From the IMG/VR virus record IMGVR_UViG_3300026286_000004: a stretch of DNA of 64,000 nt. The stretch is one strand, 5' to 3'. The notes beneath the pieces are model-generated. The model searched no databases. It saw only the letters and a program-made list of their open reading frames with translations, and was not told the origin of the DNA. The stretch is from a virus. Taxonomy: Duplodnaviria > Heunggongvirae > Uroviricota > Caudoviricetes. Of the stretch, positions 5,658 to 60,573 are shown in pieces; positions within the stretch are counted from its first letter, which is position 1, and every line of letters starts with the position of its first letter. Made by a program: the position numbers and the translations under genes.

Positions 5658-5778
5658 TCCACCCGGCCGCCGGGAACGCGCCTGTCTGCGGCAAAGAGGC
5701 GGTGGAGATGTCTCGATGAGCCCCGCGCATATCTACATCACCACTGTTCCCGCACTTCGATGTTAGGACCGACCTCTC

Positions 5779-8700
5779 ATGGCAGCATCCGCCTCCCCGG
5801 CGACCCCCGGATTGACGATCAAGCGCATCCACACCACCGCGGGTGTTCACCCGTACGACGAGGTCGACTGGGAGGGCCGGGACGTCATCCAGACGAACCG
5901 GCGCACCGGCGAGACGATCTTCGACCAGCGTGGCGTGGAGTTCCCGACGTTCTGGTCGGAGAACTCATCGACGATCGCGGTCACGAAGTATTTCCGCGGC
6001 AAGCACGGCACCCCCGAGCGGGAGCACAGCCTCCGGCAGCTGATCGACCGGGTTGTGCTCACGTACGGCAAGGCGGGCCGCGAGCACGGCTACTTCGCCA
6101 CCGAGGATGACGCTGTCATCTTCGAGCACGAGCTGACGTACGCACTGCTGCACCAGATGTTCTCGTTCAACAGTCCGGTCTGGTTCAACGTCGGCACGAA
6201 GGCGAAGCAGGCCGTCTCGGCTTGCTTCATCCTGTCGGTCGCCGACTCGATGGAGTCGATCCTGAACTGGTACACCGAAGAGGGCATGATCTTCAAGGGC
6301 GGCTCGGGCGCCGGGGTGAACCTGTCCGCCATTCGCTCCTCCAAGGAGTTGCTCTCCTCCGGTGGCACGGCGTCCGGCCCGGTCTCGTTCATGCGTGGTG
6401 CGGACGCCTCCGCTGGCGGAATCAAGTCCGGTGGCGCGACCCGTCGTGCCGCCAAGATGGTCGTCCTCGACGTCGACCACCCCGACATCGTCGAGTTTGT
6501 CGAGACCAAGGCCCGCGAAGAGGACAAGATCCGCGCCCTGCGTGACGCCGGCTTCGACATGGACCTCGGCGGCAAGGACATCAACTCCGTCCAGTTCCAG
6601 AACGCCAACAACTCGGTCCGGGTCACGGACGAGTTCATGCGAGCCGTCGAGGCCGGGTCCGGCTTCGACTTGATCGCCCGCACCACCGGCGAGGTCGTCA
6701 AGTCCGTCGACGCCCGCGACCTGTGGCACCGGATCGCGAAGGCCGCGTGGGAGTGCGCCGACCCGGGCGTCCAGTACGACGGCACGATCCAGGACTGGCA
6801 CACCAACCCGGTCACCGGCCGGATCACCGCGTCCAACCCGTGTTGCTTCGTCGGGGACACCCTGGTGATGACCGGCGACGGGGATTACCGCACGATCCGC
6901 GGGATCACCGAGGATGTGGCCGCCGGGATCGACGTCGACGTCATGTCGTGGGATGCCGCCGAACGCTGCTTCACGATCAACCAGGTCAAGAAGGGCTGGG
7001 TCGCCGGCCGGACGAACAAGCTGGTCCGGCTGCGCACCTCCGCCGGGGCGGCAACCGTTTCGACGCCGGAGCACAAGCACATGCTCGTTGACGGCACCTG
7101 GGTGGAGGCGCAGGACCTGCTCTCCGGGATGCAGCTGCGGGCGCATGCCGACGAGATCGTCACGGTTGTCTCGGCGACGCTGTCCACGGACGGGCCTGAG
7201 GTCGACGTGTACGACCTCGAGGTCGAAGACACCCACACCTTCCTCGTCGGTGAACTGGGCCGCGACCCGGTCGTCGTGAGCAACAGCGAGTACATGTCCA
7301 TCGACAACAGCTCGTGCAACCTCGCGTCGATCAACCTGCTGAAGTTCCTGCGCGACGACGACACGTTCGATGCGCAGCGGTTCGCCGACCTGTGCGAGCT
7401 GGTCATCACCGCGATGGACATCTCGATCTGTTTCGCGGAGTTCCCGACGAAGGCGATCACGAAGAACACCCGCGACTATCGTCAGCTCGGCATCGGGTAC
7501 GCGAACCTCGGCGCGCTGCTGATGGCGACCGGGCACCCGTACGACTCCGACTCGGGCCGTCAGGTTGCGGCCAGCATCACGTCGCTGATGTCGGCTGCCT
7601 CGTACCGCCGGTCCGCGGAGCTGGCCGGCGTGTTCGGACCGTACGCCGGGTATAAGAAGAACACCGGCGCGCACCTGCGGGTCATCGGCAAGCATCACGC
7701 GGCGAACATCGACCTTCGGGTGACGGACGCCTTCGCCGCCCCGATCCACGACCTCGCGGGAGCCGAATGGGAGGCTGCGGAGCGTCTCGGCGTCCGTCAG
7801 GGCTTCCGGAACGCGCAGATTTCACTACTCGCGCCCACTGGCACGATCAGCTTCTTGATGAACTGCGACACGACCGGTATCGAGCCGGACTTCTCCCTGG
7901 TGAAGTTCAAGAAGCTCGTCGGCGGCGGGTCGATGAAGTTCGCGAACCTGACGATCCCGCGGGCGCTGCGCAAGCTCGGCTACGACGATGACACCGTGTC
8001 CGCGATCGTCGCGCACATCACCGAGCACGGCCACGTCCTGGACGCCCCCGGCTTGAAGACCGAGCACTACGCGATCTTCGACACCGCGATCGGGGCCCGG
8101 TCGATCTCCCCGATGGGCCACGTCAACATGATGGTTGCCTGCCAGCCGTTCCTCAGTGGCGCCATAAGCAAGACGATCAACCTTCCGGAGAGTGCGACCG
8201 TTGAAGATATCGAGGCCGTCTACATGGCCGGCTGGAAGCTGGGCCTGAAGGCTCTGGCGGTGTACCGGGACAACTGCAAGGTTGGTCAGCCGCTGTCCGA
8301 CGGAGCGGTCAAGCCGGTCGCTGTCGCTGACCCTGCGGCGCCCGCTGCAGCCGTCCCGGCGACGATCACGGCACCGGTCCCGGTCCGTGTTCGGCTGCCG
8401 CGCAAGCGGGTCAGTGAGACGACGTCGTTCACGGTCGGTGGGGCTGCCGGGTACTTGACGGCGGGCACCTATCCGGACGGTCGTATCGGGGAGTTGTTCA
8501 TGAAGTTCGGCAAGCAGGGCTCGACCCTGGCCGGCGTCATGGACTCGTTCTCGATCGCGATCTCCATCGCGCTGCAGTACGGGGTGCCGTTGGAGACGTT
8601 GGTGGAGAAGTTCACGAACACCCGGTTCGAGCCGGCCGGCCTGACAGACGACGCGGATATCCGGATAGCGCAGTCGCCGATGGACTACGTCTTCCGCCGG

Positions 8701-9033
8701 CTTGCTCTCGACCACATGGACTTCGAGACCCGGGCGTCGTATGGCATCTACACGGCAGCGGAGCGGGCCCGTCACCTCGAGACCGGGTCGTACGAGCCCG
8801 AGCTGGTCGAGGAGGAGATGGACGGATTGTCCGACGGCATCGGTGAAGACATGGTCCCGGCTCCGAAGCCGGCCCCGGCCGCGCTCCCGGCGCCGGTCCG
8901 CCATGACGCGCTGAACGAGGGCTTGCGCAAGTCCGAGGATGCCCCGCTGTGCTTCACCTGCGGGGTACGCATGGTGAGAGCTGGAAGTTGTTTCTCGTGC
9001 GAATCGTGCGGGGCGACGTCCGGTTGTAGCTAG
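5779..9033 (+). CDS. nrdJ: class II (adenosylcobalamin-dependent) ribonucleotide reductase NrdJ, intein-containing
   Basis: The N-terminal region and the NPC catalytic-cysteine motif are recognised from memory as NrdJ-like. The ORF carries a C-terminal CxxC..CxxC Zn ribbon and is 1084 aa including the intein. Confidence 0.85.
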   Translation: MAASASPATPGLTIKRIHTTAGVHPYDEVDWEGRDVIQTNRRTGETIFDQRGVEFPTFWSENSSTIAVTKYFRGKHGTPEREHSLRQLIDRVVLTYGKAGREHGYFATEDDAVIFEHELTYALLHQMFSFNSPVWFNVGTKAKQAVSACFILSVADSMESILNWYTEEGMIFKGGSGAGVNLSAIRSSKELLSSGGTASGPVSFMRGADASAGGIKSGGATRRAAKMVVLDVDHPDIVEFVETKAREEDKIRALRDAGFDMDLGGKDINSVQFQNANNSVRVTDEFMRAVEAGSGFDLIARTTGEVVKSVDARDLWHRIAKAAWECADPGVQYDGTIQDWHTNPVTGRITASNPCCFVGDTLVMTGDGDYRTIRGITEDVAAGIDVDVMSWDAAERCFTINQVKKGWVAGRTNKLVRLRTSAGAATVSTPEHKHMLVDGTWVEAQDLLSGMQLRAHADEIVTVVSATLSTDGPEVDVYDLEVEDTHTFLVGELGRDPVVVSNSEYMSIDNSSCNLASINLLKFLRDDDTFDAQRFADLCELVITAMDISICFAEFPTKAITKNTRDYRQLGIGYANLGALLMATGHPYDSDSGRQVAASITSLMSAASYRRSAELAGVFGPYAGYKKNTGAHLRVIGKHHAANIDLRVTDAFAAPIHDLAGAEWEAAERLGVRQGFRNAQISLLAPTGTISFLMNCDTTGIEPDFSLVKFKKLVGGGSMKFANLTIPRALRKLGYDDDTVSAIVAHITEHGHVLDAPGLKTEHYAIFDTAIGARSISPMGHVNMMVACQPFLSGAISKTINLPESATVEDIEAVYMAGWKLGLKALAVYRDNCKVGQPLSDGAVKPVAVADPAAPAAAVPATITAPVPVRVRLPRKRVSETTSFTVGGAAGYLTAGTYPDGRIGELFMKFGKQGSTLAGVMDSFSIAISIALQYGVPLETLVEKFTNTRFEPAGLTDDADIRIAQSPMDYVFRRLALDHMDFETRASYGIYTAAERARHLETGSYEPELVEEEMDGLSDGIGEDMVPAPKPAPAALPAPVRHDALNEGLRKSEDAPLCFTCGVRMVRAGSCFSCESCGATSGCS
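6844..7284 (+). other. mini-intein (147 aa, no endonuclease domain) inserted immediately after the catalytic Cys of NPC
   Basis: Sequence context is ASNPC|CFVGDTLVMTGDG...VYDLEVEDTHTFLVGELGRDPVVVSN|SEY. It has Cys1, a C-terminal Asn and a +1 Ser. The penultimate residue is Ser rather than His. Confidence 0.75.
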
Positions 9034-9603: not shown

Positions 9604-9619
9604 GCGTGTGCTGAATCAG

Positions 9620-9899: not shown

Positions 9900-10754
9900 A
9901 TGGATGGCATGACTGATCTCGTTGCACCTGGCGACCCGCGGCACGGCACGTACACGGGCTACAAGCAGCTTCGCTGTCGCTGCGAAGACTGCCGGGCAGC
10001 TCAGGCCCGGCGGTACCGGGAGAGGGTGCGCAAGGGCCTTCCGAAGAACGACCCGAAGCACGGGACGCTGACGGGGTACAACAACTACGGGTGCCGGTGC
10101 GAGCCCTGCTGCGAGGCGTATGCCGCGTACCGCCGCAAGAAGTTGTCCAACGGTCTTCCCGAGGGTGACTCGCGGCATGGGACGCTAACGGGGTACAACC
10201 ACTATGGGTGCCGGTGCGAGCCCTGCTGCGAGGCGGATGCCGCGCACCGCCGCAAGAAGATGTCCGGCGGCCTTCCCGAGGGTGACTCGCGGCATGGGAC
10301 GCTGACGGGGTACAACAAATACGGGTGCCGGTGCGATAAGTGCGGCGAAGCCCGTTCCGTGTACCGCCGCAAGAAGATGTCCGGCGGCCTTCCCGAGGGT
10401 GACTCGCGGCATGGGACGCTGACGGGGTACAGACACTATGGGTGCCGGTGCGAGCCCTGCTGCGAGGCGGATGCCGCGCACCGCCGCAAGAAGTTGTCCG
10501 GCGGCCTTCCCGAGGGCGATCCGCGGCACGGGACGCTGACGGGGTACAACCATCACGTATGCCGGTGCAAGCCCTGCTGCGAGGCGCTTGCCGCGTACCG
10601 CCGCAAGAAGGCGTCCGGCGGCCTTCCGAAGAACGACCCGAAGCACGGGACGACGACGGGGTACGACAACTACGGGTGCCGGTGCGAGTCCTGTCGTCGA
10701 GGGTATGCCGCGTACCGGCGAGAACGCAGGCAACGGCCTGACCCCGCCGCCTGA
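9900..10754 (+). CDS. Cys-rich tandem-repeat protein: seven 40-aa repeats, each with an [28 protein letters not shown] motif (putative Zn-binding or DNA-binding module)
   Basis: Seven near-identical 120-bp DNA repeats. Each unit is P(E/K)(G/N)D(S/P)(R/K)[20 protein letters not shown](D/Y)AA(H/Y)RRKK(L/M)SGGL. Class-1 promoter motif upstream at 9873-9911. Confidence 0.7.
9945..10735 (+). repeat. seven ~120-bp near-identical tandem direct repeats (coding)
   Basis: Seen directly. Shadow ORFs on the opposite strand (9898..11013, 10185..10733) are artefacts of this repeat. Confidence 0.85.
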
Positions 10755-10767
10755 CCGGCTGTCTCCG

Positions 10768-10783
10768 GCAAAGAGGGAGTATG
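10768..10783 (+). promoter_or_regulatory. class-2 start element GGCAAAGAG-N5-ATG (thyA)
   Basis: One of 9 copies. The others lie before starts at 13033, 20746, 25599, 31913, 38212, 43021 and 60520(-), plus an orphan at 5690. Confidence 0.55.
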
Positions 10784-12872: not shown

Positions 12873-12965
12873 CATCTCGCCGCGCGAAATGCTTCCGCCC
12901 GAAGTGTCCATATGGTAAGATGCGCACACTGCGATAGAGGCTATGTCCGCGGGAACGGGAAGCCT

Positions 12966-12998
12966 GAGAGGCGAGGTCAGAAATGGCCTCGCCTCTCG
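12966..12998. terminator. 11-bp perfect inverted repeat hairpin (gagaggcgagg / cctcgcctctc) between the folA fusion and dinG
   Basis: Seen in sequence. Confidence 0.4.
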
Positions 12999-13032
12999 CC
13001 GTCTCCGGGCCGGCCTGCGGCAAAGAGGAAGC

Positions 13033-15324
13033 GTGACGATCCCTGATGCCGACGCTCTGCACGCGACTCTCGATGATGTCCTGACCCGGACCGTCATCGA
13101 GATCACCGGCGACCCGGACGCGAAGCCGCGGCCTGGGCAGTCCGCTCTCGCGCACGACATCCTGACCGCGATGATCAACGCGACGTCACGCGATGCGCAG
13201 GCCGGCTCCGACCATGTGCTCGGGTGCGCCCCGACCGGCGTCGGCAAGGCGATCGCGTGCGCCGCCCCGGCCGCCGTCATGGCTGCGAAGCGCGGTCACC
13301 GGACGGTTGTGTCGACCGAGTCGCTGGCGTTGCAGGCCCAACTGCTGACCAAGGATCTGCCGGACATCGCGAACGCGATCTTGAACGCGACCGGGCACGA
13401 GCTGACGTTCTCGGTCCGCAAGGGATGGTCGAACTACGGCTGCGTCGTCCAGGCCGTCACGAAGCTGCGCTCCGACCTCGAGCTTGCCGGGATCAAGGAC
13501 ACCATCCCGGACCCGGCGGACACCGACCCGGAAGAGGTCGTCGACGCGGCGATGACCATCATCCAGGACCACCCGGAACTGGACACTGCCCTGGTGAACT
13601 GGGTTCTCCTGGAAGCCATCTCCGGTGGTGAGGGAGACCGGGCGACGTGCGATGAGGACGTGACCGAGTGGGACAAGGTGTCCATCGGCCCGACCGAATG
13701 CCTCGGCAACCAGGACAAGGGCTGCCCGTTCGCGAAGCAGTGCCCGGCCGTCCGGGGCCGTGAGGCGTCGCGGGAGTCCGACATCGTCGTCACCAACCAT
13801 TCGCTGCTCGCGGTGCAGGCATCCCAGTCGGCGCCCGTGCTGCTGTCGAACCCGTCCAACGGGTTGTTTCGGCACCTGATCATCGACGAGGCGCACGCCC
13901 TGCCCGGCCAGGTCCGCGGTGCCGGGGCGCGAGACCTGTCGGCTCGCCGGATCACGCGGGTCGCCCGGGAACTGGCCCGCAACTTCGGCACGATCAACGA
14001 CTTGAAGGCGCCCGCCGTGGACGCCGTCGTCGACGACGGCTACCTGGTCGCGACCGAGGTCGACCACCTGGTGACGGCGTGGGTGCGCGGCCAGGTCGGC
14101 GAGACCCCGGCCCTGCCGCCCGATCTCAGCACGACAAGCCTTTCACCGATCTACGACAAGCTGCTCACCTGGGGTGCCGCGGTGAAGCGGGCTCTGCCCG
14201 GTGGCGACGGCCTGCCGACGTCGGCCGAGCTGTCCCGGCATCGCGTCCTGGGGCAGCTCGGATCGTTGCTGCGAGACGTGTCCGACCTGTTCGACCCGGA
14301 CGTTGCCGCGGCCCGGTGGGTCGAGGTCGGTCATGTCACCGACTCCGAGCGCGCCCGTGGCTGGACCGGTCTCGTGATGCGTTTGTCCCCGATCGACGTG
14401 TCGGAGGCGATCTCCGGCAACCTGTTCTCCACGACCGACCGGAAGCCGGGGGAGAAGCGCCCGAAGGACGAGGTGGAGCCGCGGCTCCCTTTGTCGGTGT
14501 CGATGGTGTCGGCGACCTTGCCGGCGGGTTTCGCCCGCGAGTCCGGGATCCGTGCGAAGGCGCAGGAGTACGAGTCGCCGTTCGCGACCGCGTACGAGAA
14601 TTCGATGCTCTACGTCCCGCGCGTCGACGACCCGGCCGAGCTGGCACGGATCGCGACCCGCAACGAGCGTGGCCGGTGGCGGTTCGACGTCTACCGGCAC
14701 CCGCAGTGGGCGGCCGACTACGTGACCGAACTGGTCAGCGCCAACGACGGCTACGCGCTCGTGCTGGCGGCGACGGCGGCGACCGGGAAGATGTATGCCG
14801 ACGAGTTGCGCCGTCGCACCCGGCTGCACGTCCACTCCCAGTGGGACGGCGGTGACCCGGCCCGGATCGCGGCGTCCTGGAAGGACGACCCGTCATCGGT
14901 CATGGTGGGCACGAAGTCGTTCATGACGGGCTTGGACGCGGCCGGGGACACGTGCTCCCTGGTCATCATCGACCGGGTGCCGCGGGCCCCGCAGAACGTC
15001 GTCGACGACGCCCGGGCGCAACTGCTGATGGACGAACTCGACATCGACAAGTGGGCAGCGGACCGGATGGTCTACGGCGCGGACGCCTCGCTGACGTTCG
15101 AGCAGGCCCTCGGCCGGTTGATCCGCCGGGTGTCCGACCACGGGATGGCGGTCTGCCTGGATCCGCGGCTGATGAAGAACGCCCCGCTGTCGCAGCCGGA
15201 GACGACCCGGGCGGCGTACATGGCGGCGGCCCGCCACTTCACGCGCCGCACGTCCAGCAAGGCGGACGCTCTCGCGTTCCTGCGCGAGCAGGCGGCTGCC
15301 CGGGCCGTGGCCGGGGCAGCGTAA
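13033..15324 (+). CDS. dinG: DinG/XPD-family Fe-S DNA helicase-like protein
   Basis: CAPTGVGKA P-loop (K followed by A rather than T/S), a DEAH box LIIDEAHAL, and a 4-Cys cluster CLGNQDKGCPFAKQCPAV. The class-2 element GGCAAAGAG lies 5 nt before GTG 13033. The ORF is open from 12943. Confidence 0.8.
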   Translation: MTIPDADALHATLDDVLTRTVIEITGDPDAKPRPGQSALAHDILTAMINATSRDAQAGSDHVLGCAPTGVGKAIACAAPAAVMAAKRGHRTVVSTESLALQAQLLTKDLPDIANAILNATGHELTFSVRKGWSNYGCVVQAVTKLRSDLELAGIKDTIPDPADTDPEEVVDAAMTIIQDHPELDTALVNWVLLEAISGGEGDRATCDEDVTEWDKVSIGPTECLGNQDKGCPFAKQCPAVRGREASRESDIVVTNHSLLAVQASQSAPVLLSNPSNGLFRHLIIDEAHALPGQVRGAGARDLSARRITRVARELARNFGTINDLKAPAVDAVVDDGYLVATEVDHLVTAWVRGQVGETPALPPDLSTTSLSPIYDKLLTWGAAVKRALPGGDGLPTSAELSRHRVLGQLGSLLRDVSDLFDPDVAAARWVEVGHVTDSERARGWTGLVMRLSPIDVSEAISGNLFSTTDRKPGEKRPKDEVEPRLPLSVSMVSATLPAGFARESGIRAKAQEYESPFATAYENSMLYVPRVDDPAELARIATRNERGRWRFDVYRHPQWAADYVTELVSANDGYALVLAATAATGKMYADELRRRTRLHVHSQWDGGDPARIAASWKDDPSSVMVGTKSFMTGLDAAGDTCSLVIIDRVPRAPQNVVDDARAQLLMDELDIDKWAADRMVYGADASLTFEQALGRLIRRVSDHGMAVCLDPRLMKNAPLSQPETTRAAYMAAARHFTRRTSSKADALAFLREQAAARAVAGAA

Positions 15325-20709: not shown

Positions 20710-20745
20710 CGCCGCGTCCGGCGCCCTGTCCGGCAAAGAGCAGAC

Positions 20746-21123
20746 ATGAAACGGATCCTGGTCACCGGCCCGCGCTGGCTCGACGACGTGTCTGTCATCG
20801 GGCCGGCGCTTGATGCCGCATATGCCGGGCTTCAGGCCGGCGACGACGACGTCGAGCTGGTGCACGGCAACTGCCGGGGCGTCGACCGGGTGTCTGCGGC
20901 GTATTGGTCCTCGAAGGGCTTGCCGGTCAAGCCGGTCGTGGTGACCTGGCAGCATGGACGGTACGCCCGGTTCGCGAGCAGTGAGCTGGCGACGTCCACC
21001 GGGGTCGACCTGTGTGTCGCGTTCGTTGCCGACCCGGTCTCCCGCGGCACCGCGTACTGCGTGGCCCGCGCCCAGGACCGGTCCATCCCGGTCACCATCG
21101 TCCCGATCGCCAGGAGCACGTCG
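20746..21123 (+). CDS. SLOG/DUF2493-like Rossmann-fold protein (tentative)
   Basis: ILVTGPR...VELVHGNCRGVDRVSAAYW pattern. Class-2 GGCAAAGAG 5 nt before the ATG. Confidence 0.45.
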
Positions 21124-25339: not shown

Positions 25340-25598
25340 CCCGGCGGGTAGTACGGCTGGCCCGCGTCGATCGTGTGAAGGTACGCGACCGCGGCGGGTG
25401 TTTCGCAGTAGCTGTACGTGCTGGTGTCCCCGTACGACATCAGCCCGCCCCAGCGTCGTCGCGACAGCGAGCGGAGCCGGCAGGCGGGGTGGCTTCATGC
25501 AGGGCTCCAAGAGGTCTGAAACGGTGGTCGTTTCCTCTATGAATGCGGCGGGCGGTCCAGCTCGCCGTGTTCATACTCGCCGGCGGCAAAGAGGAGCC

Positions 25599-26138
25599 GT
25601 GAAGTCAGCTCGAGCGGGAGAGAATGTCGGCGGTCCAGCCCAGCCGGCCGCGGTGCCGCGCACTGGCGTTCGCGCTGTGCGCCGGCTGTCTCCCCGGTTG
25701 CTGCTCGCCCTCGCCGTCGCGGTCCTGCTGGCGCAGTTGATGGTCACGAATGCCCGGGTCGTCCCAGACCCGGCATCGTTCCGGCCGGTGTCGACGGTTG
25801 CCGATGCACTGGCGCTCGTGCCGCAATACCGCGACGCTCCGCAGGGCGACGACCCGGACGAGAACGTCACCGTCATCGAAGGCGAGAACTGGTCGGTCAC
25901 CCTCCCGGTCATGGCCCGGATGACCGGCACCGGCCTGCCCGGCATCCCGTTGTGGACGAAGAAGAAGGACGGGATGTGCGCCCAGTTCATTGACGGGACG
26001 GTCGAGCTGTTCGACCAGACTGCGCCGTTCCTGGCGACGCCGTCCTGCCCCTCCGACGGGGCCGCCGAATGGGCGATGAACCCGGATGGTTCATGGCGGG
26101 AAGCGGTCGAGGACGTCGATTATCCGGAGGACTGGTGA
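25599..26138 (+). CDS. secreted hypothetical protein (signal/TM RRLSPRLLLALAVAVLLAQ)
   Basis: Class-2 GGCAAAGAG 5 nt before the GTG. Confidence 0.5.
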   Translation: MKSARAGENVGGPAQPAAVPRTGVRAVRRLSPRLLLALAVAVLLAQLMVTNARVVPDPASFRPVSTVADALALVPQYRDAPQGDDPDENVTVIEGENWSVTLPVMARMTGTGLPGIPLWTKKKDGMCAQFIDGTVELFDQTAPFLATPSCPSDGAAEWAMNPDGSWREAVEDVDYPEDW

Positions 26139-28565: not shown

Positions 28566-28642
28566 GCCGGGGAGGGAATTTCGCTCCGGGAAACACCCCG
28601 TCCCCGGCGTAACCACGACCGCCTACCGGCCTCATCAAGGGC

Positions 28643-31835: not shown

Positions 31836-31912
31836 GCCTTGAATGACGCCGCTGATGCCTGGTAGGCGCGCTTCGCCGCCGCCGTATCGGGGTGTTTTGG
31901 CAAAGAGCAGGC

Positions 31913-32572
31913 ATGCCCCTCGTTCCCGGCCTGTCGTTCGTCGCCCTCGACTTCGAATGCGCCAACAGCAGCCACGGCTCGGTGTGCAGCGTCGGGGTGA
32001 CCCGTGTCGTCGATGGTGTGGTGCACGAGCCCCGGCACTGGTTCATCCGTCCCGTGCCGCCGTTCGACTTCATCGCGCCGTACAACGCGCACCTGACCGG
32101 CATCACCGTCGCCGACCTCGCGGACGCCCCTGGGTTCGACTACTTCGGACCGCACCTGGTCCGCAACATCGGTGCGGGGATCGTCGTCGGCCACTGCGTG
32201 CGGTCCGCTGACCTGTCGATGTTCGAGCAGGCGTGGCATGCGAACCGGCTCGGCACCTCGCCGACGTTCCGCGCCCTGTGCACGCACGAGCTGGCGCGGG
32301 CGGTCCGTCCCGGACTGTCGTCGTACCGGCTCAACGACCTGGTCCGCTCCGTCCTCGGCGAGGACATGAAGGACCACCATAACGCCGGCGCGGACGCGCA
32401 TGCGACGGCCCGGCTCGCCGTTGCCCTGCTCGCTCAGAATCCGGCCCTGTTGGAGCGGTACTCCCGGCTGCGTCCCGGCCGTCCGCACCGGGAACCGAAG
32501 CCGCCGAAGCATCCGGGCATGGGAAACCCGCTCCCGCCGCGTAATGACCTCGTGCTACCGCACTCATGTTGA
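31913..32572 (+). CDS. DnaQ-like (DEDDh) 3'-5' exonuclease
   Basis: Exo I motif FVALDFECAN and Exo III motif HNAGADAHATARL. Class-2 GGCAAAGAG 5 nt before the ATG. Confidence 0.7.
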   Translation: MPLVPGLSFVALDFECANSSHGSVCSVGVTRVVDGVVHEPRHWFIRPVPPFDFIAPYNAHLTGITVADLADAPGFDYFGPHLVRNIGAGIVVGHCVRSADLSMFEQAWHANRLGTSPTFRALCTHELARAVRPGLSSYRLNDLVRSVLGEDMKDHHNAGADAHATARLAVALLAQNPALLERYSRLRPGRPHREPKPPKHPGMGNPLPPRNDLVLPHSC

Positions 32573-35098: not shown

Positions 35099-35106
35099 CG
35101 GACGCC

Positions 35107-35145
35107 GCGTAACGACCGTCGCTGACCGGCGTCATCTGCGGCATG
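35107..35145 (+). promoter_or_regulatory. class-1 start-associated motif (representative): GCGTAACGACCGTCGCTGACCGGCGTCATCTGCGGCATG
   Basis: GCGTAAC-N18-TCATC-N7-ATG. One of about 25-30 copies. Confidence 0.6.
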
Positions 35146-38170: not shown

Positions 38171-38211
38171 TGACCCGCCGCGAAACCGCGGCTCGGCGGC
38201 AAAGAGCCGAT

Positions 38212-38682
38212 GTGCACAACTCACCGTTGATCCGCATCACCGACCCGTCGACGCTAACCGCAGGCGACAGCGTCTTCGTAGTCCGCTTCGGGCACGAGAG
38301 CGTCGGCGAAGTGAACACGTGGATGACCGTGAAGGTGCCCAACGAGCAGTTCCGGCTGCGCGTGCGCGCCGCGAAGGACGCCGACCTCGTCATCGGGTTG
38401 CGCCCGATCGGCGACCTGGCCGGCGGGGAGGCGTACCTCGCCACCGACACCGACCTGATCACGCCCGCCCTCGACCTTGTCGCAAAGCAGGGCGGCGGCG
38501 TGTCGACCTGGCTGGCCGGCCAGCTCGCATCCGATGCGCACACCGCACTCCCGCAAGGCACCTGCGCAACGTGCGTCACGGCCTTCCCGTGCGATCCGCG
38601 CCGGGACCAACTCGAACTTGCGGCGCTCCTGCTGATCGACGCCGGATCCGTCAAACACCGACAGAGTAAGGAAATCCCATGA
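38212..38682 (+). CDS. hypothetical protein
   Basis: Class-2 GGCAAAGAG 5 nt before GTG 38212. An in-frame ATG at 38170, coupled to the upstream stop, is an alternative start. Confidence 0.45.
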   Translation: MHNSPLIRITDPSTLTAGDSVFVVRFGHESVGEVNTWMTVKVPNEQFRLRVRAAKDADLVIGLRPIGDLAGGEAYLATDTDLITPALDLVAKQGGGVSTWLAGQLASDAHTALPQGTCATCVTAFPCDPRRDQLELAALLLIDAGSVKHRQSKEIP

Positions 38683-41692: not shown

Positions 41693-42357
41693 TTAGCCGG
41701 ACCGACCTGAGCGCAGTCGTGAGCGGCTCTTTGCATCCGCGCAGATTCGCGGCAGCTCGACTTGATCCTCCGACCGGTCGACGATCAGGTACCGGAGGGC
41801 GGCGGGCAGCTGCTGCAGGACCGGCACCACCATGTCGACGGCGCGCTGTCCGCTGTTACGCACTCCGAGCATGACGTTCGGGAGCGGCCAGGCGACATAT
41901 TCGGTGGCCGGCAGGTTGACGTCCGGGTGGAGCGACATCATCAGGTTCCGGCCGTTGTGGTAGGTGTTGCGAACCATATGTTCGAGCGTCAGGCCGCCGG
42001 CGTCGGGAACCTCGCCGGTGTTCAGGCGGAGCAGGCCGTCGGGGTCGGCGACCACCACCCGGAATGTCAGGGTCGGGTGCAGGCCCATCTCGGCGAACGA
42101 GGCCGCGACGGCGCTGGCTTGCCCGGATCCGTTAACGACGGCCGGAATGGCCGGCGGTAGGTGGCTTCGATCTGGTTCACGGCGGCGTCTTTCGGTGTTG
42201 GTCCGGTTGCTTTCTCTTTGCCACCGGACGCCGGCGCAGTCAGGTCGACGTCCTGCTCGGGATGCGGCTTGGTGGCGAACTTCCCGCCCGATCCGCGTGG
42301 GTGGTCGGCTTCGGTGAATTGCGTCGTCGTGCCCTGGATGTGTGCGGGGACATGCAC
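41693..42357 (-). pseudogene. decayed family-X gene: the N-terminal module is intact but the canonical ATG reads ACG, and it is followed by a frame break into the 41693..42088 ORF
   Basis: The reverse strand reads CCGCACACATCCAGGGCACGACGACGCAATTC, compared with CCGCACACATCCAGTGCATGACGACG at 44260. It encodes TTQFTEADHPRGSGGKFATKPHPEQDVDLT. Protein-like reading switches frame near 42140-42160. Confidence 0.4.
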
Positions 42358-42983: not shown

Positions 42984-43020
42984 TCGCCGCCGCAGTCGGG
43001 GTCCGCGGCAAAGAAGAGAC

Positions 43021-43827
43021 GTGGACCCCTCCATGAAGCGTCTCGACCCGGTGCCCGGCCTGCCGCCGGTCGGCACCGCGGTCTCGCTTGCTCTCGGGGT
43101 GCTCAAGCATGCGAAAGTGCGCCGCTGGTCCGACCTGCCGCACTTTCCGGAGGACCTCGCACTGACGACCGGCCAGCCGGAGCTGCTGACCCGGTTCGCC
43201 CCGGCAATCACCCACGTCGCTGCCGCCGCCGACGGACGCCCGCTCGTCACCGTTGTCGTGTGCACCGCCTGCCGCCGCTGGCTGTTGTTCGCGCGCGGCA
43301 CCGCACCGAAGTCGTGCCCGATGTCGCTGGACTGTCCGGGCGAGCTGATCAAGGTGGCCCCGGCCCAGCTCGTTCCGCTGGTGCCGCGAATCTCCGGGCG
43401 GATCGAGCGCCCCGACGGGACGGTCGAGTTCCGTCTCGATGACGTGCTGCACAACCCGGACGGACCGGCCGTGATATTGCCGGACGGGGAGACCCAGTTC
43501 TGGGTGAAGGGCAAGCTGCACAACGCCGACGGTCCGGCGATCTCCCGCCCGGACGGCACGTTCGAGCACTGGGTTCGCGGACGCCGGCACAACCCGGACG
43601 GTCCCGCGGCGAAGTACCCGGACGGGACGGTCGAGTTTTGGGTGAACGGGAAGCTGCGCAGCAAGGACGGGCCGGGTCGTATCCGCCCGGACGGGACCCG
43701 CGAGTTCTTCGACACGCAGGGCCGCTGGCACCGCGCCGGCGCTCCCGCTGTTGAACGACCAGACGGGACCGGCGAATGGTTCGCCCATGGCAGACAGAAA
43801 TCCACTCCATTGAAGGGAACATCATGA
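43021..43827 (+). CDS. MORN-variant repeat protein (~8 repeats of RPDGTxEFWVxGKLHNxDGPA) with an N-terminal Cys cluster
   Basis: Tandem repeats of 11-12 aa. Class-2 element GGCAAAGAA before the GTG start. Confidence 0.55.
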   Translation: MDPSMKRLDPVPGLPPVGTAVSLALGVLKHAKVRRWSDLPHFPEDLALTTGQPELLTRFAPAITHVAAAADGRPLVTVVVCTACRRWLLFARGTAPKSCPMSLDCPGELIKVAPAQLVPLVPRISGRIERPDGTVEFRLDDVLHNPDGPAVILPDGETQFWVKGKLHNADGPAISRPDGTFEHWVRGRRHNPDGPAAKYPDGTVEFWVNGKLRSKDGPGRIRPDGTREFFDTQGRWHRAGAPAVERPDGTGEWFAHGRQKSTPLKGTS

Positions 43828-51939: not shown

Positions 51940-53103
51940 TCACGCGACCGCAAGGATGACCTTTCCAAGTTCGTCGCGCATCCGCTGCGGGATGGCCGCG
52001 TCCTGCGGCTTCATCGCGAGCAGCGAACGGACGGCGGGGACGACAACATCCTTGCGGCCAGCGGCGATAGCGGAGTCGCACACGTCGATGGCGGCGTTCC
52101 AGCGGTTCAGCGTTGGGTTGTGGCCCATCAGGGCGACGATGGCCTGGGTGAGGGCGAACAGGACGTCCGGTGTGTCGGTCGTCCACTTCACGAGCGACGG
52201 GTCCGCGAGGACCGCTTCGGGGTCGTACAGGCCGCGGGCCTTGAACCACTGGAAGAACATCTTGCCCTCGCCTTCTCCGACGCACCCGTTGATCACGAGC
52301 ATCAGGGTGGGGGCGTCGCCACGGCGGACGTAGCGCAGCATCTTCTGCAGGTTGTCCCATGACCGGGGCGACGGCCAGGCACCGGAGGACTTGTCCGCGT
52401 CGGCCGGGCAGCCGGGGTCGATTTTGGACGGGTTGTGTTGGAGATAGCCGACAACGGCTGACGCATTGGCGAGCTGCTCCGCCTCGGTCGGGTTGCCGGT
52501 CAACTGCTCCAATGACGGGACGATCTCGTTGGCGAACCCGGACAGGACACCGTTCAGCCACGCCTCGCGGTCGAACTGCCACTTGCAGTGCCAGAAGCGG
52601 TTCGCTGTCGCGGGAGCCAGTTCCTGGCCGTTCACGGCGGACTCGGGCGGGTTCATCGCCGCGACCATCGAGACCGTCTTGGGGAGCTGGAAGTCGCCCG
52701 CGCACCGTTCCTGGATCACGCGGAGCATCCCGGCCTGCGTGGACGGCGGGACGGTGGTCAACTCGTCGAAGAAGATGGTCGCCTTCGGGGCGGCCGCGGC
52801 CCGGATCGCGAACGCCGGGACGGTGTTGACCGTGGTCGGCTGCGCGACCACGTCGCCGTTCGGCATTGTCGTGACATCGGAGATCACGGGCAGGCCGGAA
52901 AAGTCGACCGCCTCCCGGATCGAGCCGATCATCGTTTCCAGGTGACGGCCCCACGCGGCCGACCACTTGGTCAGCTGGGCGGTCTTGCCGATGCCCGGGT
53001 CGCCGATGAAGGCGGCGGGCACGTCCGCGAGGACGGCTGCGGCATACGCGCGCAGCATTGGTGTTCCGGGCAGGTTTTTCAGGTTCTCACTCATGCCCCA
53101 CAT
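51940..53103 (-). CDS. MoxR-like AAA+ ATPase
   Basis: Walker A GDPGIGKT and Walker B IFFDELT. Minus-strand class-1 motif GCGTAACGACGTGCGATCACCGGCGTCATGTGGGGCATG. The alternative start is 53094. Confidence 0.7.
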   Translation of the reverse strand: MWGMSENLKNLPGTPMLRAYAAAVLADVPAAFIGDPGIGKTAQLTKWSAAWGRHLETMIGSIREAVDFSGLPVISDVTTMPNGDVVAQPTTVNTVPAFAIRAAAAPKATIFFDELTTVPPSTQAGMLRVIQERCAGDFQLPKTVSMVAAMNPPESAVNGQELAPATANRFWHCKWQFDREAWLNGVLSGFANEIVPSLEQLTGNPTEAEQLANASAVVGYLQHNPSKIDPGCPADADKSSGAWPSPRSWDNLQKMLRYVRRGDAPTLMLVINGCVGEGEGKMFFQWFKARGLYDPEAVLADPSLVKWTTDTPDVLFALTQAIVALMGHNPTLNRWNAAIDVCDSAIAAGRKDVVVPAVRSLLAMKPQDAAIPQRMRDELGKVILAVA

Positions 53104-53130
53104 GACGCCGGTGATCGCACGTCGTTACGC
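53092..53130 (-). promoter_or_regulatory. class-1 motif on the minus strand: GCGTAACGACGTGCGATCACCGGCGTCATGTGGGGCATG
   Basis: 26 of 30 positions identical to the 37203 copy. Contains the helicase TAA stop. Confidence 0.6.
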
Positions 53131-54390
53131 AATCGGCTGGGAAAGAATCCGCTGCCGCACGGCGACAGCGGCCCGTTCCGCGCCGATCTTCACGAGCTGG
53201 GCCACGGACGTACTGTCGTGAACCCACACCAGTCGGGCCTTGTGCCGGGAGAGCATCACGCAAGTACGGCCCAGCGAGATTTGGTGCGACCCGAGGTCGG
53301 GTGCGCCAGTGATCGGGTCGAGCGCGACCACGACCGCCCACTGCCCGCCCTGCAACTTGTCCGCCGTGCCGATCGAGATCCGGGAGCGGCCCCTGGCGCG
53401 CAGCATCGCGGTGATCTTCGTGACCTGGGTGGACCGTGAAACGACGATGGCGATATCGGATTCGACGACCGTCCGCTGCTGGCCGTCCTCGACCAGGGTG
53501 TCCCCGAGGTGGGAGACGGCGAGATCGACAACGGCGCGCATCATCGCGGAGTCGTCCACCCCGTCCGGTTCCGGGACGGTGAAGTGGGCAACTTCGGGCA
53601 GCCGCGCACCGCCACGGGCGACGTACTTGTCCGGGCGCGCCGAACCGAACGGGAAGTCGTACAGCGGAGCGATCACCTTCGCTGAAATCTCGCCGAGCCG
53701 CCACGTAGCGTCCATCGTGTGCACCTTGGGTGTCACCCCGTACAGGTGCTCGAACGCTTCCGGGGAGCGGCGGTGCGGAGCGATCCGCATCGCCTCCCAT
53801 GCGGACGTGTCGGCGGTGATCACCGGACCGATCTGGCCGGGATCGCCAACCAGGACGAGCTGCGGGGTGTTCGCGGCAGCGGTCGCGACCTCATCGAACG
53901 GCAGCTGGTACGCCTCGTCGATGAGCAGCACGTCGAACTGCGGTGCCGACCTATGTGCCGTCAGTGACGCGCACGTCATTACTGACACCTTCGTGCCCGG
54001 CACGCCTGGCATGGGCTTGGTCAGGTGCTTCAAACCATCCGGGACGTTGCTTCTGCCTTCGAGGCGGACCATGCCGTCGGGCAGGTCCAGCGCGAGCCGT
54101 TCGGCGACCGCGTTGCGCTGTTCCGTCGTGAATGTTGCGACGCCGACGCGCAGGTCTCCGAACCCGGCGAGCCACGCCGTGAGGATGCCGAGCAGGTGCG
54201 TCTTGCCGCCACCGGGCGGCGACTTCACGATCGTTACAGCCGCGCCGCCGTACACGTCGGCGACAACCGCCGCGGCAACCGAACCGGGCACCAGGGTCGG
54301 CGGAGCCCAACCGGCTTCCGGCTCATCCTGAACCGCTTCCGGCTTGACGTTCTGCTCGCCAATCAGCCCGGCCAGGTCATCGAGATTCAT
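53125..54390 (-). CDS. SF1 (RecD/AAA_30-like) helicase
   Basis: Walker A SPPGGGKT, Walker B LLIDEAYQL and LVGDPGQIGPV. Minus-strand class-1 motif at 54388-54426. Confidence 0.65.
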   Translation of the reverse strand: MNLDDLAGLIGEQNVKPEAVQDEPEAGWAPPTLVPGSVAAAVVADVYGGAAVTIVKSPPGGGKTHLLGILTAWLAGFGDLRVGVATFTTEQRNAVAERLALDLPDGMVRLEGRSNVPDGLKHLTKPMPGVPGTKVSVMTCASLTAHRSAPQFDVLLIDEAYQLPFDEVATAAANTPQLVLVGDPGQIGPVITADTSAWEAMRIAPHRRSPEAFEHLYGVTPKVHTMDATWRLGEISAKVIAPLYDFPFGSARPDKYVARGGARLPEVAHFTVPEPDGVDDSAMMRAVVDLAVSHLGDTLVEDGQQRTVVESDIAIVVSRSTQVTKITAMLRARGRSRISIGTADKLQGGQWAVVVALDPITGAPDLGSHQISLGRTCVMLSRHKARLVWVHDSTSVAQLVKIGAERAAVAVRQRILSQPIA

Positions 54391-57775: not shown

Positions 57776-57887
57776 CGTCGCGCTTCCCGGGGAGACGGAT
57801 GATCACGATCAGCAGGACGAGCGCGGTCACCACTGTCGCGGCGCACGAGAGCGCGATGACACCGATCGCATACAGGACGGTCGCCAT
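57768..57887 (-). CDS. small membrane peptide (39 aa)
   Basis: MATVLYAIGVIALSCAATVVTALVLLIVIIRLPGKRDDD. The start overlaps the recG stop (TGATG). Confidence 0.3.
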   Translation of the reverse strand: MATVLYAIGVIALSCAATVVTALVLLIVIIRLPGKRDDD

Positions 57888-60520
57888 CACGCGCTCATCA
57901 GCCACGCCGCGGCTTCCTCTCCGACCGCCGCGGCGACCTCGGAGCGCAGGCCGGGCCGGCGCACCAGGTGCGGGTCGTCGCGTGTCAACGCTGCCGCGTC
58001 CTCGTTCGCCCACGCCAGCAGCTTCGTATCGTTCGTCACTGACGCGACCCGCAGGTCCCGGCCCGTTCCGGACTGGGTCGTTCCGAGCACCTGACCGGCG
58101 CCGCGGATCTCCAGGTCGAGTTCGGCCAGGGCGAATCCGTCGGTCGTCGACACGATCGCCTCCATGCGCTGCTTCGCGACGGCGGTCTTCGGGTCGCCGA
58201 CGAGGATGCACCGCCCGGACGCATGGCCGCGCCCGACCCGGCCCCGTAGCTGATGCAGTTGTGCGAGACCGAACTTCTCCGCCCCGAGCACCACCATGAC
58301 GGTCGCGTTCGGGATGTTCACGCCCACCTCAATCACGGTGGTCGCGACGAGCACGTCGAGCTTCTTCGCCGCGAAATCGGCCATCGTCGCGTGCCGGTCC
58401 GCTGGGGTGTCCTTGCCGGTGATGACACCGATCCGCATTCCGGCCAGCGCGCCGATGACGAGCTGCTCCGCGGTCGCGTGCGCGGCGGCGGCCTCTCGGG
58501 TCGCAGAAGACGTCACCAGCGGGACGACGACGAATGCCTGATGGCCGGCGTCCACTGCGGTGCGGACCGCGGCCCACGCCATCGACGCCGGGTCCATCAG
58601 GTCGGCCTGGTCGCCGCTGATGTGGTGGGTCAAGATCGGGGTCCGGCCGGGCGGCATCTCGTCCAGGACGGACAGGTCCAGGTCGCCGAACGTCGTCAGC
58701 ACGGCGGTTCGCGGAACCGGCGTCGCCGAGGCGTACAGGACATCCGGGACCCGGACCCCCTTCGCGCGCAACGCGGCCCGCTGCTCGACGCCGAACCGGT
58801 GCTGCTCGTCGATCACGGCCACCGTCAGGTCGTGGAAGACCACCTTCTCGTCCAGCAGGGCGTGCGTGCCGATCACGATGTCGATCGAACCGTCAGCCAT
58901 CCCGGCAAGGGTCTCCTTGCGCTTCTTCCCGGTGACCTTCCCGGTCAGCAGGCGCACCTGGACCGGTTCGCCGTCGGCCTTCGTCAGCCCGGACAGCGAA
59001 TCCTCGACGTCCTCGAAGTGCTGGAGCGCGAGGATCTCGTTCGGCGCGATCATCGCGGCCTGGGTGCCGTTCTCGACCGCTCCGAGCATCGCGATCAGGG
59101 CCACCAGCGTCTTGCCGGACCCGACGTCTCCCTGCAGCAGGCGGTGCATCGGCGCCGGGACGGCCATGTCGTTCAGGATCGCCGTCACGGCGCGCTGCTG
59201 TGCCCCGGTCGGGGTGTACGGCAGCGACGCGAGGAAGTCGCGCATCAGGTCACCGGTCAGGACGTGCGCGGTCGCCTCCTGGCCGCTGTTCGCTGCCTTG
59301 GCGGCCGAGATCACCAGTTGCAGCCGCAGCAGTTCGTCGTACGCGAGCCGGTCGCGGCCGGACTGCGCCTCATCGGCATTGGCCGGGTCGTGCACCATCC
59401 GGTACGCGGACGCCCGGTCCGGCAGCCCGTGCTCGCCGAGCAGTTCCGGTGGCACCGGGTCGATCATCGACCCCAGGCGGCGGGCCGCTTCCCGGGCGGC
59501 AGCGAAAATCTGCCACGTCGCCAGCTCATTCACCCCGGATGCCGGGTAGACGCCGATCATCTTCGCGGACGATTCGACGATCGGTTCCGCGAGTGGGTTC
59601 GTCATCCCGAACCCGTTGCCGCCGTCGCTGTAAGGGAACGTCTCGAGCTTGCCGTGCATGATGACGCGCGTGCCGACGGGGATGCGCCGGCCCAGGCCGC
59701 GGGCATGGAACCAGCGCACATGCAGGTACGTGCCGGCGTCGTCCCGGATGGTTGCCTTGCTCATCGCGCCCCGCTCCTTCGGGACCTCGAGCTTCGTCAC
59801 CGTCCCGAACACGGTCGCGGTCGTGCCGGGCACGAACTGTCGCACCTGGCCCGGCGAGGTCAGGTCGATGTACCGGCGCGGCAGGGTGTGCAGCAGGTCG
59901 TGCACGTTGCTGATCCCGGTGGCGTGCATCGCGTCGGCGATCACCGGCGAGACGGCGGCCAGCTCGTCCAGGCCGACCCCGCGCAGGCCGTCGATGTTGC
60001 CGTCGAACGGCAACGGCGGCAACGCCTCGGTCGCGACGACCGGGTTCTTCTCGCACCACTGCACGATCGTCTCGGGCACCTCGCACCAGCCGACGGGGGA
60101 GCCGGCCTTGACGAGCGCGTGCGACGGCAGCAGCCAGCAACTGTCGGCCTTGCGCCACATCGCGGTCGCCCCCATGTGGGAGCGCACCAGGTCCGGGCCG
60201 TCCAGTCGTGGGTGCACCTCGACCAGTGACGGGTCGCCGGGACGTGCACGTGCGGCCGCCTTCGCAAGCCCGTTCAAGGCGGCCGGCCGGCCGTCCGGCC
60301 CGATCACGGTGATGCCCGCTTCGGTGAAGGTCCGGTCCGGGTTCTTACCGGTCGCGGTGATCGTCCACGACTTGTCGGCGTCGTTGAACTGCCGCCCCGG
60401 GAAGCGCTTCACCCATTCACGCAAGGATTCTCCCGTGATTGCGTGGATGTCGTGGTAGCCGAAGTACAGCACGACGGCAGGGGTGTACCAGCTGCCGGTG
60501 ATCTCCGCTTGTGCCGTCAT
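57887..60520 (-). CDS. recG: ATP-dependent DNA helicase RecG
   Basis: GDVGSGKTLVA, DEQHRFG and the wedge and helicase domains. Class-2 GGCAAAGAG 5 nt before ATG 60520. Confidence 0.85.
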   Translation of the reverse strand: MTAQAEITGSWYTPAVVLYFGYHDIHAITGESLREWVKRFPGRQFNDADKSWTITATGKNPDRTFTEAGITVIGPDGRPAALNGLAKAAARARPGDPSLVEVHPRLDGPDLVRSHMGATAMWRKADSCWLLPSHALVKAGSPVGWCEVPETIVQWCEKNPVVATEALPPLPFDGNIDGLRGVGLDELAAVSPVIADAMHATGISNVHDLLHTLPRRYIDLTSPGQVRQFVPGTTATVFGTVTKLEVPKERGAMSKATIRDDAGTYLHVRWFHARGLGRRIPVGTRVIMHGKLETFPYSDGGNGFGMTNPLAEPIVESSAKMIGVYPASGVNELATWQIFAAAREAARRLGSMIDPVPPELLGEHGLPDRASAYRMVHDPANADEAQSGRDRLAYDELLRLQLVISAAKAANSGQEATAHVLTGDLMRDFLASLPYTPTGAQQRAVTAILNDMAVPAPMHRLLQGDVGSGKTLVALIAMLGAVENGTQAAMIAPNEILALQHFEDVEDSLSGLTKADGEPVQVRLLTGKVTGKKRKETLAGMADGSIDIVIGTHALLDEKVVFHDLTVAVIDEQHRFGVEQRAALRAKGVRVPDVLYASATPVPRTAVLTTFGDLDLSVLDEMPPGRTPILTHHISGDQADLMDPASMAWAAVRTAVDAGHQAFVVVPLVTSSATREAAAAHATAEQLVIGALAGMRIGVITGKDTPADRHATMADFAAKKLDVLVATTVIEVGVNIPNATVMVVLGAEKFGLAQLHQLRGRVGRGHASGRCILVGDPKTAVAKQRMEAIVSTTDGFALAELDLEIRGAGQVLGTTQSGTGRDLRVASVTNDTKLLAWANEDAAALTRDDPHLVRRPGLRSEVAAAVGEEAAAWLMSA

Positions 60521-60573
60521 ATTTGCTCTTTGCCGCTGCACGTCGTTCCGGCGGCACCGCACACATACTGGGC

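Follow-up and report, generated by a model that had tools for sequence, protein, structure and literature searches.

A bipartite motif at gene starts of a mobile element from wastewater actinobacteria: a candidate second class of leaderless promoters

What kind of signal is a sequence of nine nucleotides, GGCAAAGAG, that recurs at a distance of exactly five nucleotides upstream of the start codon in a subset of genes? The question is raised by the 64,000-nucleotide stretch of IMG/VR record IMGVR_UViG_3300026286_000004 analyzed here (the window; 68% G+C). It belongs to a ~161-kb mobile element of wastewater actinobacteria and matches the public contigs DAINLJ010000004.1 (161,078 bp) and two JGI contigs of 160,903 and 160,953 bp; JGI samples 3300026282 and 3300009517 carry the element. 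The sites that carry this nonamer are called class 2, to set them apart from a different start-anchored motif, class 1. The reading that we favor, with some reserve, is that class 2 constitutes a second promoter class beside an extracytoplasmic function (ECF) sigma-like class 1, its first cistrons being leaderless and its reader a putative alternative sigma or specificity factor.

The repeated nonamer

The repetition of GGCAAAGAG is real, chance being ruled out by the statistics: the window holds nine exact copies where 0.28 are expected, and none of 100 shuffled sequences reached nine. Seven of these copies (10767, 13019, 20732, 25585, 31899, 38198 and, on the minus strand, 60534) are followed by exactly five nucleotides (N5) and then ATG or GTG (RTG); a one-mismatch form, GGCAAAGAA, at 43007 keeps the same distance. 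The original prediction also counted nine copies, but its nine were these seven, the one-mismatch form and a copy at 5690; the exact copy at 42214-42222 on the minus strand was missed. The sites, each with the upstream box discussed below, are as follows.

5668-5706, plus strand: class 2 site without a start codon at N5; box CGCCGG at 5668-5673, GGCAAAGAG at 5690-5698
10745-10783, plus strand: class 2 site of thyA (product with the ThyA Pfam domain), which is followed by a DHFR-metallophosphatase gene; box CGCCGC at 10745-10750, nonamer at 10767-10775, ATG at 10781
12997-13035, plus strand: class 2 site of the gene for a DinG-like helicase; box CGCCGT at 12997-13002, nonamer at 13019-13027, GTG at 13033
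20710-20748, plus strand: class 2 site of a YAcAr/SLOG gene; box CGCCGC at 20710-20715, nonamer at 20732-20740, ATG at 20746
25563-25601, plus strand: class 2 site of the gene for a 179-aa protein; box CGCCGT at 25563-25568, nonamer at 25585-25593, GTG at 25599
31877-31915, plus strand: class 2 site of the gene for a DEDDh exonuclease; box CGCCGC at 31877-31882, nonamer at 31899-31907, ATG at 31913
38176-38214, plus strand: class 2 site of the gene for a 156-aa protein; box CGCCGC at 38176-38181, nonamer at 38198-38206, GTG at 38212
42985-43023, plus strand: class 2 site of the gene for a 268-aa protein; box CGCCGC at 42985-42990, GGCAAAGAA at 43007-43015, GTG at 43021
60518-60556, minus strand: class 2 site of recG; box (T)GCCGC at 60556-60551, nonamer at 60534-60526, ATG at 60520-60518
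42214-42222, minus strand: exact nonamer without box or start codon; below 12 bits in the position-weight scan and 14.5 bits in the site model (E 0.011)

The last of these is most likely a chance copy lying outside the system. The eight start codons at N5 (10781, 13033, 20746, 25599, 31913, 38212, 43021 and, on the minus strand, 60520) are all in frame with coding open reading frames (ORFs) of the codon-usage gene map, which bears out the spacing claimed for eight named genes, seven with the exact nonamer and one with the one-mismatch form. Those at 10781, 13033 and 20746 coincide with gene starts called independently in public assemblies of the same element, and the thyA start at 10781 is secure because the product begins with 15 residues that we take to be the canonical ThyA N-terminus. 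For the gene of the 179-aa protein, public annotation places the start downstream of 25599 and gene callers picked the in-frame positions 25677 and 25698; the motif argues for 25599. The codon-usage caller preferred downstream in-frame TTG codons for this gene (25698) and for the 38212 gene (38227). The class 2 start codon is ATG or GTG, never TTG.

That seven of nine exact copies should lie at precisely N5 from a gene start has a chance probability of about 1e-21, and the nonamer is thus commoner near starts than chance allows. It is preceded by C (CGGCAAAGAG) in seven copies and by T at 31899. When sites outside the window are included (L numbers below denote such sequences), N5 is found in 17 start-linked copies. 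The sole exception is a diverged GGCAAAGGG copy at L219:9986, which lies N6 from the called GTG or N4 from an ATG. A position-weight scan of the window and its left flank returned ten sites above 12 bits, nine of them at 38-44 bits, revealing a discrete set with no graded tail. The best score in the site model, 40.8 bits, belongs to the 38176 site.

Translation signal, structured RNA or promoter

A generic Shine-Dalgarno (SD) sequence was considered and rejected, as the original prediction had argued, since the pairing energies are weak and the non-pairing flanks are invariant. Where N5 adds no G, the nonamer core pairs with the 16S anti-SD at -2.1 (60520), -2.8 (20746) and -3.8 kcal/mol (43021), and because these values are so low its conservation is not accounted for by rRNA pairing; the GGC flank is invariant and unable to pair with the rRNA tail. 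A structured RNA or riboswitch was likewise rejected: no Rfam family matched the class 2 sites or the nrdJ leader, the consensus fold reaches -3.5 kcal/mol without compensatory pairs, and the predicted nrdJ leader is unstructured (z 0.26).

The nonamer has a partner. A second box, (C)GCCG(C/T), is found exactly 16 nt 5′ of it in all start-linked copies of the element, and as CGCCGG at the 5690 site. With a frequency of 0.008 per position, the occurrence of GCCG(C/T) at that offset in nine of nine start-linked copies has a chance probability of about 1e-19, while the 16-nt spacer is mostly unrelated from copy to copy. The C/G-rich context GTCTCCGG, proposed earlier as a candidate for conservation, is not conserved; the conserved upstream part is this box. 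Position -1 relative to the start codon is a pyrimidine in 17 of 17 start-linked copies, compared with 49% of genes that carry neither motif (p ~5e-6), and +1 is A or G. The full signal reads (C)CGCCGC-N16-GGCAAAGAG-N5-RTG.

Relative to the start codon's first base, the box occupies -36 to -31 and CAAAGA, within the nonamer, -12 to -7. If +1 is that first base, the -35, -10 and +1 positions of a promoter are matched, and the geometry would be that of a promoter giving a leaderless mRNA. Two boxes near -35 and -10 with a fixed spacer of ~16-19 bp are what the sigma-70 family requires, and this arrangement is present. What was called a start element in the translational sense is thus probably a promoter.

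The copy at 5690 is informative here. It scores 24 bits in the position-weight scan and 31.2 bits in the site model, the latter being a score for a site that belongs to the model's own training alignment. Box and pyrimidine/purine signature are kept and the start codon is absent, in agreement with the earlier observation that this copy near nrdJ has no correctly spaced start; this fits a promoter with a leader rather than a ribosome-binding site. Transcription is predicted to start at G 5704, with T at -1, and nrdJ would receive a 75-nt leader ahead of its ATG at 5779, the start in the public call (5812 according to the codon-usage caller).

The site positions are those of transcription-unit heads. 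None of the eight class 2 genes is translationally coupled, and the gap to the upstream gene is always at least 26 nt; 69% of genes with neither motif overlap the upstream gene or carry an SD of -6 kcal/mol or better. The claim of a separate gene class, distinct from that of the class 1 motif, is upheld by this discrete set of unit heads. The box of the thyA site sits within the 3′ end of the upstream gene and the 20710 box directly follows an upstream TAG; the YAcAr/SLOG gene is trailed by four genes that are coupled or only a few nucleotides apart. Directly upstream of the DinG-like site lies a hairpin (12965-12998; 15-bp stem, GAAA loop, -30.5 kcal/mol, z -5.5) without a U-tract, and only the 36-bp motif is therefore left to restart transcription after it. 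The hairpin stands between the thyA-DHFR unit and the DinG-like site and probably belongs to the actinobacterial terminators that have no U-tract. Two divergent regions are equally compact. The 77 bp between 31835 (minus) and 31913 (plus) are filled by one class 1 and one class 2 site back to back, and in the 53 bp between 60520 (minus) and 60574 (plus) the recG site overlaps a variant class 1 site (CCGCACACAT-N7-ATG) of the 60574 gene.

From this architecture we infer the following mechanism. RNA polymerase with an alternative sigma factor, or with a factor of equivalent specificity, would bind the box at -36 to -31 together with CAAAGA at -12 to -7, GGCAAAGAG supplying the -10 part of a two-box promoter. 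The first base transcribed would be the A or G of the start codon, and the first gene of the unit would be translated from a leaderless mRNA, the downstream genes presumably relying on SD sequences or start/stop overlap. Such a promoter, if it is one, is not of the housekeeping type: the -10 consensus TANNNT of group 1 sigma factors is not found, CAAAGA retaining only the A at -11. A scan for sigma-70-type promoters over 60 kb gave chance-level results (two found against ~1.2 expected per 20 kb) and nothing at the class 2 sites, so that class 1 and class 2 are the only visible candidate transcription signals. Because both classes show -35/-10/+1 geometry anchored on the start codon, a different sigma factor for each appears to be the most economical reading. 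To that extent the earlier suggestion of a different sigma factor is supported; a gene for a sigma factor or RNA polymerase was not found among the proteins and annotations scanned.

Conservation beyond the window

The spacing holds outside the window, as had been anticipated. To its left, an 831-aa PD-(D/E)XK protein has CCGCCGC-N16-GGCAAAGAG-atcat-ATG at the start called for its gene (L090:4742). Further left, the sequence model (R1) found CGCCGC-N16-GGCAAAGGA-ccagc-ATG where a 983-aa protein starts (L219:8162) and, at the exceptional L219:9986, CGCCGC-N16-GGCAAAGGG 5′ of a 586-aa gene. These two diverged copies are the only ones that read SD-like AAAGGA or AAAGGG. A second contig from the same sample, L220 (Ga0102832_1000637), shows no similarity at the nucleotide level with the window or the sequence immediately flanking it and contains four start-linked class 2 copies, all at independently called starts and one with a weak -35 box; the genes encode a release-factor-like protein, a WhiB-family protein, and proteins of 124 and 80 aa.

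The motif is also kept in a distant relative, L088, whose DinG-like protein is 48% identical. Nostocoides (Tetrasphaera) jenkinsii Ben 74 has a near-identical copy of L088 (L222) in its chromosome, near a tyrosine integrase gene. In both, CGCCG(C/T)-N15-GGCAAAGAA-N5-RTG precedes a methyltransferase gene and the ortholog of the PD-(D/E)XK gene, with 15 nt between the boxes instead of 16; the PD-(D/E)XK proteins share 33-37% amino-acid identity and their N-termini align. In the N. jenkinsii sequence HF571038.1 the GTG of the PD-(D/E)XK gene is at 1,900,337 (minus strand) and the nonamer at 1,900,351-1,900,343. L222 has in addition a GGCAAAGAC-N5-GTG variant.

Class 2 copies are found neither in the closest relative, L085 (DinG 59% identical), nor in L087, L089/L217 or L218. 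A match at L085:8825 lies within the DinG coding sequence and was discarded. L085 has a start-anchored motif of its own, CCGTACACATC-N6-ATG, with 11 copies in 21 kb, and L089/L217 has GCCGCATAGATC; L218, a relative of 56% G+C, uses ordinary SD sequences. Among L085, L088/L222 and L089/L217 the repeated start motifs also include CTGCGCTCA-N8-RTG and GCCGCATAGGGCTATAT-GTG. The family thus appears, from these sequences, to exchange promoter specificities while anchoring to the start codon stays.

Wider searches added little. No near match to the window was found among INPHARED phages or PLSDB plasmids, and IMG/VR scans gave nothing related, the L098 match being a chance one away from any gene start. 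Relatives found in GTDB genomes with the DinG-like protein were at most 34% identical, none with clustered motif copies. A metagenome pattern scan yielded, among the matches listed, mostly chance singletons, only L108 being informative. L103 was set aside as a chance match in a locus with an unrelated nrdJ homologue, as was L158:3060-3170 (Ga0196963_10000064), an unrelated contig where a 42-bp tandem repeat has GGCAAAGAG in each unit.

Objections and alternative explanations

Several observations weigh against the promoter reading. CAAAGA lacks the T at -12 and at -7, the -35 box is pure G+C, and we know of no sigma specificity that the class 2 boxes match. A Pfam scan of the window proteins (small ones were fused with linkers, and "Serglycin" matches are linker artefacts) turned up no gene for a sigma factor or RNA polymerase, and the Pfam annotations precomputed for the flanking loci and the second contig show none either. 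The purine-rich AAAGAG stands at a plausible SD distance, a G-rich N5 raises rRNA pairing in three copies to between -6.3 and -8.9 kcal/mol, and the diverged copies GGCAAAGGA and GGCAAAGGG drift toward the SD consensus and resemble a Microbacterium phage start motif, GGGAAAGGACCCC. Many sites lie just 26-42 nt after a co-directional gene, as an operon-internal ribosome-binding site would, and the weak GCCG...CGGC dyad could be a regulator site.

The alternative that survives best, although we regard it as unlikely, takes its model from the start-associated sequences (SAS) of actinophages. The nonamer would be transcribed and would act at translation initiation, as a conserved ribosome-binding site or the site of an RNA-binding factor, and what corresponds to the extended SAS (ESAS), the part that prolongs an SAS upstream, would be the box. 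In Cluster K phages the SAS, GGGATAGGAGCCC, typically lies 3-7 nt from the start and has a full SD core, and its upstream extended element consists of 17-bp inverted repeats (PMC3203893). The SAS of Cluster EF Microbacterium phages is GGGAAAGGACCCC, with an upstream element centered on GTAGAG (PMC7302621). Class 2 shares with both a conserved asymmetric motif in one orientation, placed right before the starts of a subset of non-structural genes, and it has an upstream box that may be comparable with their upstream elements. It partly resembles the EF motif (GG[G/C]AAAG...), the variant GGCAAAGGACCAGC at L219:8162 being especially close; its AAAG is able to pair with the 16S 3′ tail, and its sites occupy short co-directional intergenic gaps.

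The likeness ends at the spacing and the core. Class 2 is fixed at N5 in 17 copies, with GGCAAAGGG the one deviation, whereas SAS spacing varies over 2-7 nt; the eight SAS copies read directly in EF phage AnnaSerena lie 2-6 nt from the start. The SAS has a good SD core (AGGAG or AAAGGA), and class 2 is without a full one, its dominant AAAGAG being mismatched to the anti-SD and pairing weakly. Most AnnaSerena copies have an AT-rich, -10-like TATAGT or TAGAGT ~30-40 nt to their 5′ side, and the AnnaSerena SAS would sit in a leader. Class 2 has no such separate -10 element; nothing promoter-like is seen 5′ of its box, even behind the hairpin that resembles a terminator and in the divergent regions of 53 and 77 bp. 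The box itself is a 6-bp G+C sequence at a fixed distance whose only symmetry is a 4-bp GCCG/CGGC dyad, and a translation signal does not explain the 5690 copy, which has no start codon.

It is quite improbable that class 2 is instead an operator, in which a DNA-binding regulator (a stoperator-type repressor or an activator) would recognize the GCCG-N16-CGGC dyad and AAAGAG and co-regulate a DNA-metabolism regulon, the true promoter determinants being weak or elsewhere. GCCG/CGGC inverted repeats with centers 20 bp apart do occur in 11-14 of 14 aligned sites, half of the class 2 genes function in DNA or nucleotide metabolism, and a similar spacer, GAAACCGG, is common to four sites. The repeated stoperators of Cluster A mycobacteriophages offer a precedent, being many short asymmetric intergenic sites (PMC3203893), and class 2 sites resemble them in these respects and in being oriented with transcription. 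Stoperators, however, are not at a fixed distance from starts and act through repressor binding, and no repressor is known here. In class 2 the asymmetric AAAGAG, rather than the dyad, is the most strongly conserved part, half-sites of 4 bp made up of G+C say little at 68% G+C, and an operator would not be expected to keep a fixed distance to the start or to obey the rule of a pyrimidine at -1 and a purine at +1. Other promoters are not seen, and a regulator site overlapping the promoter would in any case be compatible with the promoter reading.

A non-functional repeat, whether a recently duplicated intergenic cassette or chance, is effectively refuted by conservation and statistics: the four similar spacers suggest that some copies arose by duplication, yet most spacers and flanks are unrelated while both boxes and their spacing are kept, the motif persists 5′ of orthologous genes in an element with proteins just 33-48% identical, and chance is excluded statistically.

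The four sites with the similar spacer, of the form CGCCGC GAAACCGGGG.CGG.C, are L090:4720-4741, 38176-38197 in the window, L220:9272-9293 and L220:12434-12455. Their likeness suggests that a promoter cassette was duplicated or else that a subset of the sites holds an additional operator.

Comparison with known promoters

Promoters of leaderless genes in Streptomyces follow the pattern of those in Mycobacterium. In the latter the -10 element lies ~6-7 nt before the ATG or GTG, which is itself the transcription start, and C or T is preferred at -1 (PMC4633059). Class 2 agrees with these actinobacterial promoters in the -10 distance, the pyrimidine at -1, the absence of a functional SD, and downstream genes that are coupled or SD-led; a further parallel is a short, apparently leaderless upstream ORF (uORF) that overlaps the next gene, for RtcB, by ATGA in L108. 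It differs in its boxes, the -10 being CAAAGA within GGCAAAGAG instead of TANNNT and the -35 CGCCGC. It is also far more uniform than housekeeping promoters and has so far been seen in one mobile-element family only. Bipartite structure, a fixed spacer and highly uniform copies are typical of alternative-sigma regulons, and these class 2 shares with ECF-sigma promoters, without their AAC at -35 and CGT at -10. The literature yielded nothing relevant on the nonamer as a known promoter element and no description of the motif. Regulons of alternative promoters with leaderless mRNAs are known as a kind of feature from mobile elements of actinobacteria, and class 2 would not be a new kind of biology.

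The two motif classes

ECF-sigma promoters have AAC at -35, a spacer of ~16 nt and CGT at -10, an example being GTAACG-N-CGAT for SigD of M. tuberculosis. Class 1 has both hallmarks at ~16-17 nt; class 2 has neither. The class 1 signal, GCGTAAC(G/C)AC-N9-ACCGGCNTCAT-N7-ATG, occurs in ~23 copies in the window (e.g., 35101-35145, 28601-28645 and, on the minus strand, 53094-53136). The start codon is the anchor here too: GTAAC lies at about -34 to -30 and CGTCAT at -13 to -8, equivalent to AAC-N16-CGTC, and 21 of 22 copies have C at -1. Judged by its sequence, class 1 (GCGTAAC-N16-CGTCAT) fits the ECF-sigma type well.

The CAT of the class 1 motif often creates a false ATG, and as a result callers start about ten genes 9 nt early, the real start being the second ATG. 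Probable true starts of class 1 genes are 15360, 31092, 32575, 37239, 37661, 39141 and, on the minus strand, 53094, 55032 and 57605; positions 4527 and 9909 are also better starts than those picked by the codon-usage caller.

The contrast drawn earlier between a class 2 enriched for core DNA metabolism and a class 1 of small accessory genes survives in part. First genes of class 2 are longer (median 427 aa vs 185 aa, p = 0.009), but the functional enrichment is only a trend: six of 12 class 2 first genes act in DNA or nucleotide metabolism, as against five of 26 for class 1 (Fisher p = 0.068), and class 1 also heads an NAD-dependent ligase, an SF1 helicase and two exonucleases. The suggestion of early and late programs is not sustained, as the two classes are interleaved along the element and form no temporal blocks.

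Implications

Should class 2 prove to be a promoter, it would provide a simple rule for locating true starts and transcription units in an uncultured element family, and the calls for the 25599 and 38212 genes would be shifted. It would also define a co-regulated set weighted to nucleotide and DNA metabolism (nrdJ, thyA-folA, the DinG-like helicase, recG, the PD-(D/E)XK nuclease and the DEDDh exonuclease) and would point to a putative transcription specificity factor. A cultured strain, N. jenkinsii Ben 74, has a relative with the motif in its chromosome, which makes the model directly testable. The comparison also sharpens the question of what actinophage SAS and ESAS do.

A broader proposal is offered as speculation, and we think it doubtful as it stands: ~160-kb elements of Nostocoides/Tetrasphaera-like actinobacteria may run almost wholly on leaderless mRNAs from several orthogonal, element-specific promoter classes, one of which would have a -10 (GGCAAAGAG) unlike described sigma specificities and be read by an element-encoded sigma or specificity factor conserved while proteins diverged to 33-48% identity. 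If that were so, some actinophage SAS might be promoter elements and not translation signals.

Other features of the element

The window contains no phage structural genes. Its products include a 1483-aa FtsK/TrwB-like protein and an AAA_10 ATPase, besides NrdJ, ThyA, Tmk and a DHFR fusion. DinG-like and RecG helicases are encoded as well, as are an NAD-dependent ligase, exonucleases, one protein with PARP-WGR and one with a Macro domain, and proteins with the GmrSD and NERD domains and with RlaP and HAD_SAK_2, two domains associated with RNA repair. What this gene content and the integrase of the relative suggest is a large element of Micrococcales, conjugative or integrative, and not an obvious phage. 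NrdJ (5779-9033) is a class II ribonucleotide reductase with HINT/intein-like Pfam matches at about residues 361-489, which suggests the insertion of an intein.

A release-factor-like gene (PCRF and RF-1 domains, GGQ) is found beside RtcB at L220:9308-9938 (= L108:878-1508) and L222:8198-7553 (minus strand). It is split at CTT TGA C, the classic +1 programmed-frameshift site of RF2 (prfB), into an ORF of 46-49 codons and a longer one, and the site is kept in two divergent elements, including that of N. jenkinsii Ben 74. At L108:1522-1574 an ORF of 11 codons (MPTDQSRKTLR) comes after a class 1 site and ends in a stop codon that overlaps the RtcB start (ATGA). This ORF resembles a leaderless uORF coupled to RtcB, which has an SD, GAAAGA, of its own.

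In L091:20603-23522 (Ga0209368_1000257), thyA is followed by a short DHFR gene and then by chromosomal-looking genes for enoyl-CoA hydratase, an acetyltransferase and AzlC/AzlD; the switch may reflect either a chimeric assembly across thyA/folA or a junction at which the element recombined with the host. Finally, the protein encoded at 63061-63999 (minus strand) has a long N-terminal repeat of the GQGGQ type followed by a DUF2201/vWA-like region, and a MoxR-type AAA_5 ATPase (start 53094) is encoded elsewhere on the same strand.

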